DNA from: a virus
Lineage: Duplodnaviria > Heunggongvirae > Uroviricota > Caudoviricetes
Direction: 5' to 3' (one strand)
Length of the DNA: 45,485 nucleotides
IMG/VR virus record: IMGVR_UViG_2869970738_000006
Coordinates: 1-45,485 of that record
Positions 31,109 through 31,466 of this stretch are shown here, piece after piece (positions within the stretch are counted from its first letter, which is position 1; the number at the start of each line of letters is the position of its first letter). The notes under the pieces are model-generated. The model was not told where the DNA came from. It made no database searches and saw only the letters and a list, made by a program, of their open reading frames with translations. The position numbers and the translations under genes were made by a program.

Positions 31109-31266
31109 ACAGCCTTCCCCTGAATAAATTAACCGCCACTTGCCATTCCGTACAGAAGTCGGATATCCTTCGCCCGAAAAGCATGAAACACATTTCTTTC
31201 ATGCCCACCGATAATCCTGTTGGTTAAAACCGGTAATGGCATAAAAATTCTGAATATCTTCACATT

Positions 31267-31294
31267 TTCACACACTGACTGTGGCGCTTATAAT
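31267..31294 (+). promoter_or_regulatory. Near-consensus sigma70 promoter (TTCACA-16 bp-TATAAT) in the I-J intergenic insert
   Basis: -35 at 31267-31272, -10 at 31289-31294, opposite to the phage late genes. Confidence 0.5.
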
Positions 31295-31301
31295 TTCGCT
31301 G

Positions 31302-31399
31302 CGTTAGTGTTTTTTTGCCCGAGTAACAAAAACAACTCCTTCACATTGATCTTCATTTGTCTGTCCCCGCAGCTCCGCGATCACTGCGGGATTTTTTTA
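31302..31399 (+). ncRNA. Candidate ~100-nt small RNA (promoter to intrinsic terminator) between tail genes I and J
   Basis: Promoter upstream; terminator stem ccccgcag/ctgcggg(g) at 31365-31391 followed by ATTTTTTTA; no ATG-initiated ORF in the predicted transcript. Confidence 0.4.
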
Positions 31400-31466
31400 T
31401 GTTTTATCCCTGTCGCCCGATAACCACGACCTTTCCGCCCCCGCCTTCATCACGGGTGCTGATGTC

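Follow-up and report, generated by a model that had tools for sequence, protein, structure and literature searches.

A pasB-type small RNA cassette between tail genes I and J of a lambdoid prophage, with conserved family features and predicted targets

PasB and other phage-borne small RNAs

The pathogenicity-associated sRNA B (PasB) was described by Pearl Mizrahi et al. (2021) in EPEC O127:H6 E2348/69, where its home is the prophage PP6, between E2348C_1436 and E2348C_1437, on the minus strand of NC_011601.1 (1466343..1466261, 83 nt; PMC8550237, Table S6). PasB was detected by RIL-seq, gives a northern band of the expected size and is depleted when hfq is deleted (log2 fold change, -6.8 and -2.4; PMC8550237). 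It ends in a U7 tract and occupies the second position in 99-100% of its chimeras, which number 1820 in the non-activating and 258 in the activating condition; PasB peaks in the condition in which the CRP-repressed Spf is low and CyaR is high (PMC8550237). Its RIL-seq partners, 37 in total and 30 of them CDS or 5'UTR, are nearly all core-genome mRNAs, with an accessory-genome fraction of 0.5-1.9%, and PasB is absent from the common target motifs collected in Table S7 (PMC8550237). A preprint by Zhu, Shabalina and Storz (2026; bioRxiv 10.64898/2026.05.13.724894) reports 1158 PasB hits with a range limited to Escherichia and Shigella, describes the sRNA as embedded within a phage structural-gene operon and places its seed just upstream of the terminator, while it is silent on promoters, EcOnc names and tandem PasB copies.

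Two further groups of phage-borne RNAs are relevant for comparison. EcOnc22, EcOnc23 and EcOnc24 of O157:H7 Sakai were recorded as plus-strand Hfq-CRAC peaks (Tree et al. 2014, PMC4104026, Table S2), with a northern band of about 85 nt that is destabilised without hfq (PMC4104026). The EHEC sRNAs AgvB and AsxR (Rfam RF02702 and RF02703) resemble PasB in being short, Hfq-dependent and prophage-borne, in having their own terminators and in lying convergent with phage genes. They differ from it in their location, which is the PR' moron site downstream of Q instead of the tail operon, and in their sponge activity towards GcvB and FnrS; PasB has no recorded sRNA partner (PMC8550237).

The window analysed here is a stretch of 45,485 nucleotides, the IMG/VR virus record IMGVR_UViG_2869970738_000006 of the Caudoviricetes. 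We found that window positions 31316-31398 align with PasB of E2348/69 at 83 of 83 positions, and that the two genomes agree letter for letter over a longer stretch, which opens at about 31254, takes in the promoter and the terminator and reaches past 31435. The reverse complement of the published northern probe, AATCCCGCAGTGATCGCGGAGCT, occurs exactly and only once in the window, at 31371-31393, with 0.00 chance matches expected. The genomic setting is shared as well: E2348C_1436 is annotated as a tail assembly protein (I) and E2348C_1437 as gpJ (J), and pasB lies on the strand opposite to them, as in the window. The two copies are thus alike in the 83 nt, the promoter, the terminator, about 190 bp around them, the I-J position and the orientation, but they are unlike in the J-proximal half of the spacer, and the window's prophage carries an amber codon in I. 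At 31342 (sRNA position 27), the window has the C of the E2348/69 type and not an A; the variant with A at this position we take to be the PasB-2 of the preprint, the commoner form. Since the difference at position 27 falls in the middle of the predicted seed, the two alleles may differ in their targets.

Because its sequence is identical to that of PasB, the cassette is, on this comparison, the already known pasB gene: the window holds one more copy, and nothing is new in the element itself. The initial annotation had read the locus as a prophage-encoded regulatory sRNA moron, and this reading is borne out by the northern band, the Hfq dependence and the RIL-seq partners of the identical PasB (PMC8550237). 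The copy in the window may make PasB, too, although its prophage has an amber codon in I and has lost a spacer hairpin. An identity with AgvB or AsxR was rejected, as their site is a different one (the PR' moron) and the window contains no sequence or covariance-model match to them. The database searches that had been proposed to classify the element gave a divided result. Rfam came back empty: PasB is absent from Rfam 15, a search of the region at E<=1 gave only chance snoRNA-like matches inside J, and the whole window has zero matches at gathering score. BLAST, in contrast, revealed the spacer to be common in E. coli prophages and phages, located between a tail assembly gene and J at the loci inspected.

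The I-J spacer and the cassette in the window

The genes on either side had been named I and J, and their Pfam matches agree with these names. Lambda_tail_I is found with E=1.5e-16 in the product of the upstream gene (full ORF, 31467-32084; the start of gene I was set by coordinate transfer from the 55989 annotation), and the J product has seven J-protein Pfam domains. The spacer between them was initially described as 358 non-coding bp. It is indeed enlarged, since the I-J gap of phage lambda is only 60 bp, but the size is inflated by an amber TAG at 31467-31469 in the window's I. Close relatives have CAG at this place, and their I is longer by 21 codons (...SRRISQDISTRDEGGGGKVVVIGRQG*), which are lost in the window; it ends with a stop codon at 31404-31406, at a distance of 5 nt from the PasB U-run. 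Because I ancestrally ends at 31404-31406, the real non-coding spacer is 31109-31403, which amounts to 295 bp. Among the close relatives aligned (55989 and E2348/69), none carries the amber codon, and the allele may reflect a decaying prophage or a mutant form of I.

In the J-proximal part of the spacer, outside the cassette, the window lacks 47 bp at 31192/31193 that are present in relatives (positions 3085-3131 of L001), a deletion between short TTTCT repeats. The lost segment is a hairpin with a 13-bp stem (AAACCCCGGTATC...GATACCGGGGTTT), preceded by an A-rich and followed by a T-rich run, which is the layout of a bidirectional terminator. We regard the deletion as a rare allele, because the full-length 180-bp form is retained at >=99% identity in 1442 of 1451 matching E. 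coli records; one of the 1451 records with a J-proximal segment covers less than 80% of the full-length form, and none of the complete E. coli genomes listed as best matches has the deletion. A second, decayed cassette at 31109-31236 was considered and rejected: a single 16-nt match there is no better than in shuffles, and the cassette profile finds nothing. E2348/69 (L003, 3930-3996) and Sakai (L135, 992-1072) have a different and shorter J-proximal spacer, in which a hairpin (CAGGCACC...GGTGCCTG) is followed by TTGTTTTT on the late-gene strand, forming a terminator-like element between the PasB promoter and J.

Elsewhere in the window, two homologous head/tail gene sets lie about 33.9 kb apart, at 663-8735 and 34584-42696. 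They are 86-100% identical in sampled 300-nt blocks; within the window, the left copy lacks an I-J region. The arrangement points to a tandem of two related lambdoid prophages or to a pair that has recombined.

Table 1. Features of the pasB locus in the window, with mean identity among 57 distinct cassettes of the family.
Feature	Position	Strand	Basis	Mean identity
Gene J, tail tip attachment protein	27635..31108	-	Pfam Ig_J, FNIII-A_GpJ, Ig_GpJ_C and others	
J-proximal spacer, outside the PasB cassette	31109..31236	.	alignment; cassette profile finds nothing there	
Conserved upstream element (A-tract, dyad, TTT); candidate activator site or UP element	31241..31267	+	57 cassettes	
A-tract	31241..31248	+	57 cassettes, not imposed by search	0.92
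TCTGA and TCACA half-sites	within 31249..31264	+	imposed by search	1.00
TTT	31265..31267	+	57 cassettes, not imposed by search	1.00
-35 hexamer TTCACA	31267..31272	+	promoter scan	0.72 (-35 and spacer)
-10 hexamer TATAAT (nATAAT or TATCAT in family)	31289..31294	+	promoter scan	0.87
GCGTTA	31301..31306	+	57 cassettes	0.95
Predicted 5' extension of primary transcript	31301..31315	+	inferred from -10 position	
PasB sRNA, literature annotation, 83 nt	31316..31398	+	83/83 identity to PMC8550237 Table S6 entry	
Predicted seed UCCUUCACAUUGAUCUUC (anti-Shine-Dalgarno CUCCUU, then variable core)	31337..31354	+	target-helix clustering	
Rho-independent terminator, likely Hfq-binding 3' end	31366..31398	+	scan and folding	0.92-0.98 (arms); 0.66 (loop)
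Untranslated 3' tail of gene I	31404..31469	-	translations, alignment, RefSeq I annotation in relatives	
Gene I, tail assembly protein, truncated, convergent with PasB	31467..31985	-	Pfam Lambda_tail_I	

The complete pasB cassette spans 31237-31398 (family profile match, E=6e-43), and the profile search finds this single cassette in the window (Table 1). The near-consensus promoter that had been noticed on the strand opposite the late genes was recovered by a sigma-70 scan: TTCACA-16-TATAAT at 31267-31294 on the + strand matches 11 of 12 consensus positions, and in shuffles of the 1.5-kb region, promoter-like sites averaged 0.8 when 9/12 positions, a weaker threshold, were required. The intrinsic terminator also lies where it was first placed. 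While the scan alone reports a terminator-like hairpin at 31374-31390 followed by ATTTTTTTAT, folding yields a 7-bp stem, CCCGCAG/CTGCGGG (31366-31372 and 31384-31390), with a loop of 11 nt and the U7 tract at 31392-31398. Two hallmarks of Hfq-dependent trans-acting sRNAs are found here, namely a predicted promoter of its own (sigma-70, 11/12, with a -10 conserved in the family) and a terminator hairpin with a U-tail of at least about 6 nt (a GC-rich 7-bp stem and U7). In the predicted fold, the RNA upstream of the terminator stem, including 31337-31354, is single-stranded and has a C/U-rich region, and the folding energy is unremarkable (z = -0.7).

Two estimates exist for the 5' end of the RNA. 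The start predicted from the -10 hexamer, about 7 nt past it, coincides with the conserved GCGTTA (31301-31306), which is followed by a U-run. Transcription from about 31301 would give 98 nt and so agrees with the transcript of roughly 100 nt that was first proposed, whereas published PasB has 83 nt and a 5' end at 31316 that was derived from RNA-seq coverage. This published end sits 15 nt downstream of the promoter-predicted start, directly after a U7 run, and no alternative -10 that would suit a start at 31316 is evident. The distance between both positions, together with the U7 run just upstream, suggests either 5' processing or an imprecise coverage-based annotation. For the Sakai homologue, a full length of 91 nt is predicted, and the northern band of about 85 nt comes nearer to this value.

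A family of cassettes with a conserved upstream dyad

Homologues of the cassette are widespread. A BLAST search at raised sensitivity with 31240-31410 finds them in 1813 of 5426 complete E. coli genomes (about a third), at 5543 places, with up to 11 per genome and with identities down to about 74%. Ten diverged examples were inspected: all ten adjoin I in the same orientation, and eight of them are bordered on the far side by an annotated J or J-like tail-tip gene. From the IMG/VR collection, scanned with a terminator pattern, we assembled 57 distinct cassettes with a mean pairwise identity of 0.70. The predicted RNAs of family members are 91-104 nt long, and the indels between them have lengths that are not divisible by three. 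The family shares the blocks AAYUCC and UURAUCUUC around a variable core of 6-7 nt. RNAalifold, applied to 20 family members, returned no pairs (two terminator types are misaligned), and single-sequence folds of family members have no conserved 5' structure in common.

These comparisons bear on the view that hexamers and hairpin arose fortuitously in the spacer, or that the insert is a relic of an IS or a repeat, and that no dedicated transcript exists. The ordinary folding energy and the lack of an Rfam match would be in keeping with it. However, the -10, the terminator and the dyad have been kept in 57 variants whose overall identity is about 70%, by which measure the promoter and terminator signals exceed chance. 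Furthermore, the identical sequence was observed by northern blot and RIL-seq (PMC8550237). The IS or repeat-fragment origin that the initial annotation had named as an alternative fails at the same point, as the inspected BLAST matches are all syntenic, at I-J junctions, and lie over tail-gene annotation or none, never over a transposase. We consider this explanation extremely improbable and rejected it.

Hardly more probable is that the cassette encodes a small protein, instead of or besides the sRNA. Two candidate reading frames are present in the window: a + strand ORF with a GTG start at 31307-31423 and a 22-codon ORF on the late-gene strand from an ATG at 31356-31354, the latter with GGGGA 7 nt upstream. 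The + strand ORF has no Shine-Dalgarno sequence and reads through the terminator, and the family indels, which do not preserve a reading frame, speak against either. The late-strand ORF (31288-31356, - strand, antisense to PasB, product MKINVKELFLLLGQKNTNAAKL) is probably no gene, because about a third of the variants have ACG in place of its ATG (CAT to CGT). Neither ORF is conserved, and this reading was likewise rejected.

A conserved element of the family lies upstream of the -35. The dyad TCTGA-N6-TCACA at 31249-31264, 24 bp upstream of the -10, is part of a symmetric arrangement, AAAWT-TCTGA-N6-TCACA-TTTY. While the half-sites were imposed by the search, the unimposed positions (the A-tract, TTT, and T57 and T59 inside N6) are invariant or nearly so in the 57 cassettes. 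The dyad was no part of the terminator-pattern ascertainment; of the 128 hits to that pattern, 103 have its exact form at a distance of 109-119 nt upstream of the stem. The other 25 hits, sorted by eye, comprise about 13 with sodC in place of the promoter, about 10 unrelated sequences and one cut by a contig end; one intact cassette among these 25 has a dyad that varies by 1 nt. The -35 is poorly conserved in diverged members (TTCTGT, TCCGGC, TCTGCA), which suggests that the promoter depends on the upstream element.

The conserved dyad points to a single regulator, a lead that can be tested. CRP sites have a 22-bp consensus like AAATGTGATCTAGATCACATTT and are centred at -41.5 or -61.5. The sequence AATTCTGAATATCTTCACATTT matches 14 of 16 informative positions of the CRP consensus. 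The dyad centre, 32.5 bp from the -10 and thus at about -44.5, fits neither CRP promoter class. High PasB together with low Spf would fit activation by CRP and would equally fit stationary-phase control, so that the expression pattern serves as a lead only.

sRNA cassette arrays and other cargo at the I-J junction

The family appears to extend to Hfq-bound RNAs that were named independently. EcOnc22, EcOnc23 and EcOnc24 map to the I-J gaps of the Sakai prophages Sp15, Sp14 and Sp11, respectively, and these gaps hold a PasB-type cassette that is about 74% identical to the window's (family profile, E=6e-40). The EcOnc coordinates were published on NC_002695.1; taking AgvB as the reference, we found version 2 to be offset by +137 to +146, which puts the EcOnc peaks inside the sRNA body, and the offset is constant across the region, because the three peaks are equidistant from J. 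Like PasB, EcOnc22-24 occupy the I-J slot, are antisense to the late genes and are bound by Hfq, and they share the upstream dyad, the -10, a GCRTTA start region, the TTAATCTTC block and the CCCGCAG/CTGCGGG terminator. In contrast to PasB, they have another seed core (CUCCAUAACGUUAAUC against CUCCUUCACAUUGAUC) and lack 6 nt in the 5' part. We infer that EcOnc22-24 are diverged relatives of PasB, an assignment that depends on the coordinate offset. Our literature search found no paper that links PasB with EcOnc22-24.

Several prophages carry more than one cassette at this junction. OmrA/B, PrrF1/2 and Qrr1-5 are known tandem multi-copy sRNA families. In one relative (L031), four diverged cassettes are lined up at 7609-8432 in an I-J gap of 920 bp, and further arrays comprise four (L123, L124, L073), three (L029) or two cassettes (L095, L070, L010, L050). 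Among the four-cassette arrays is that of IMG/VR UViG_2778261423_000004. The arrayed cassettes differ in their seed cores, but each is equipped with the dyad, a -10 and a terminator of its own. The arrays resemble OmrA/B, PrrF1/2 and Qrr1-5 in that 2-4 tandem cassettes share promoter and terminator while their bodies have diverged; they differ from OmrA/B or Qrr in their location on phages and in the much greater divergence of their seeds, and the window itself has a single cassette. Tandem PasB-type arrays are not mentioned in the searchable literature.

A protein-coding gene can take part of the same place. At about 13 IMG/VR loci, sodC, which encodes a Cu,Zn superoxide dismutase (Pfam Sod_Cu, E=2e-31), replaces the PasB promoter and dyad (L047, 6647-7400; also L021, L034, L036, L056, L057, L069, L074, L083, L111, L115 and L129). 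At these loci, sodC has its own terminator hairpin, and a PasB-like body and terminator are kept downstream, by the I stop codon.

The range outside Escherichia was surveyed with a stringent 19-base operator pattern against 100,044 species genomes, which gave 12 matches. Full cassettes occur only in E. albertii and on three suspect contigs, and the other eight matches consist of the operator part alone. This range is in line with the one given in the preprint, Escherichia and Shigella. The suspect contigs are a 460-bp contig of Parendozoicomonas haliclonae (L148), a 546-bp contig of Asaia platycodi (L146) and an 8.7-kb contig of a Collinsella MAG (L147); their complete or truncated cassettes most likely stem from E. 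coli or phage contamination or from misbinning.

Predicted seed, targets and mode of action

The prediction of mRNA targets, which had been suggested as a check on the sRNA reading, located a candidate seed. Eight genes among the most frequent RIL-seq partners, chosen from the part of the PasB table that we consulted, were fetched from E2348/69 and scanned for contiguous helices in comparison with shuffled sequences, with start-codon positions taken from RefSeq; unconstrained duplexfold gave over-extended duplexes. For five of these eight targets, the best helix falls within 31337-31354, and two helices clearly beat the shuffles. The strongest is a 16-bp helix of PasB 31339-31354 with napF, from -10 to +6 around a GUG start (0/100 shuffles), followed by a perfect 11-bp helix of 31337-31347 with yijD, recorded in 'fabR' chimeras, from -17 to -7 (1/100). 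Helices of 10 bp are predicted for caiF (31337-31346; +3 to +12; 8/100) and gshA (31345-31354; -10 to -1; 17/100), and one of 9 bp inside the hflX CDS (31345-31353; 22/100), while rplX, map and E2348C_2648, three of the eight, have no helix that beats the shuffles. Helices from five of eight targets in one 18-nt stretch of a 65-nt region are unlikely to coincide by chance (rough binomial, about 0.004). In this set of partners, the four predicted sites in napF, yijD, caiF and gshA overlap annotated start regions, and the seed at 31337-31354 is thus predicted to pair with the ribosome-binding sites of these genes.

We consider it highly probable that 31237-31398 is a complete pasB cassette and represents a self-contained moron for a trans-acting, Hfq-dependent sRNA. 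The cassette would have been inserted tail-to-tail with tail gene I, antisense to the lambdoid late operon. RNA polymerase would start near 31301, probably aided by a factor on the TCTGA-N6-TCACA dyad or by an UP element, and stop in the U7 tail, at 31398; loss of the first 15 nt may then produce the 83-nt RNA. With Hfq bound to the 3' U-tail, the seed at 31337-31354 would pair with Shine-Dalgarno or start-codon regions of napF, yijD, gshA and caiF and block the initiation of translation. In this way, the prophage could adjust genes of anaerobic respiration, carnitine and glutathione metabolism in its lysogen.

The conserved position of the cassette raises the question of a role in cis. PasB could act mainly as an antisense RNA on the I-J spacer of the late mRNA, to which it is perfectly complementary, leading to cleavage or to altered translation of J. 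Such pairing could determine how much I is made relative to J, or keep leaky tail-tip expression silent in the lysogen. All family members examined are antisense to the late operon, between I and J, the tandem arrays hold the same orientation, and 5 nt separate the terminator from the stop codon of I. Such strict conservation of orientation and position keeps a cis role a candidate, but the partner data do not favour it: the RIL-seq partners come nearly all from the core genome, as noted above (PMC8550237), and neither I nor J is a partner in those PasB rows, part of the non-activating sheet, that were examined. Moreover, the J ribosome-binding site (31109-31125) lies about 175 nt from the nearest PasB-complementary base, and the diversification of the seeds suits targets in trans and not a cis duplex. 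A mainly cis-acting PasB therefore seems unlikely to us, and the trans-acting, Hfq-dependent sRNA remains the preferred reading.

At the level of the family, we tentatively propose, as a possibility that we hold to be well short of probable, that the I-J junction of Escherichia lambdoid prophages is a dedicated and expandable sRNA locus with one to four tandem cassettes, which have the CRP-like dyad operator, the start region and the terminator in common but differ in seed core, and in which PasB and EcOnc22-24 form one family and one signal, possibly cAMP-CRP, switches a whole set of sRNAs directed against ribosome-binding sites. With the element itself already described, the remaining interest lies in the function of PasB and in the family-level features found here. 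The leads given by our analysis are a predicted seed with four ribosome-binding-site targets, the upstream dyad, the link between PasB and EcOnc22-24, and an I-J hotspot that accommodates sRNA arrays or a sodC moron; they bear on the post-transcriptional rewiring of host gene expression by prophages. If the proposal is true, a strain-specific, phage-delivered set of sRNAs would retune anaerobic-respiration, carnitine and redox genes (napF, caiF, gshA) in the lysogens.
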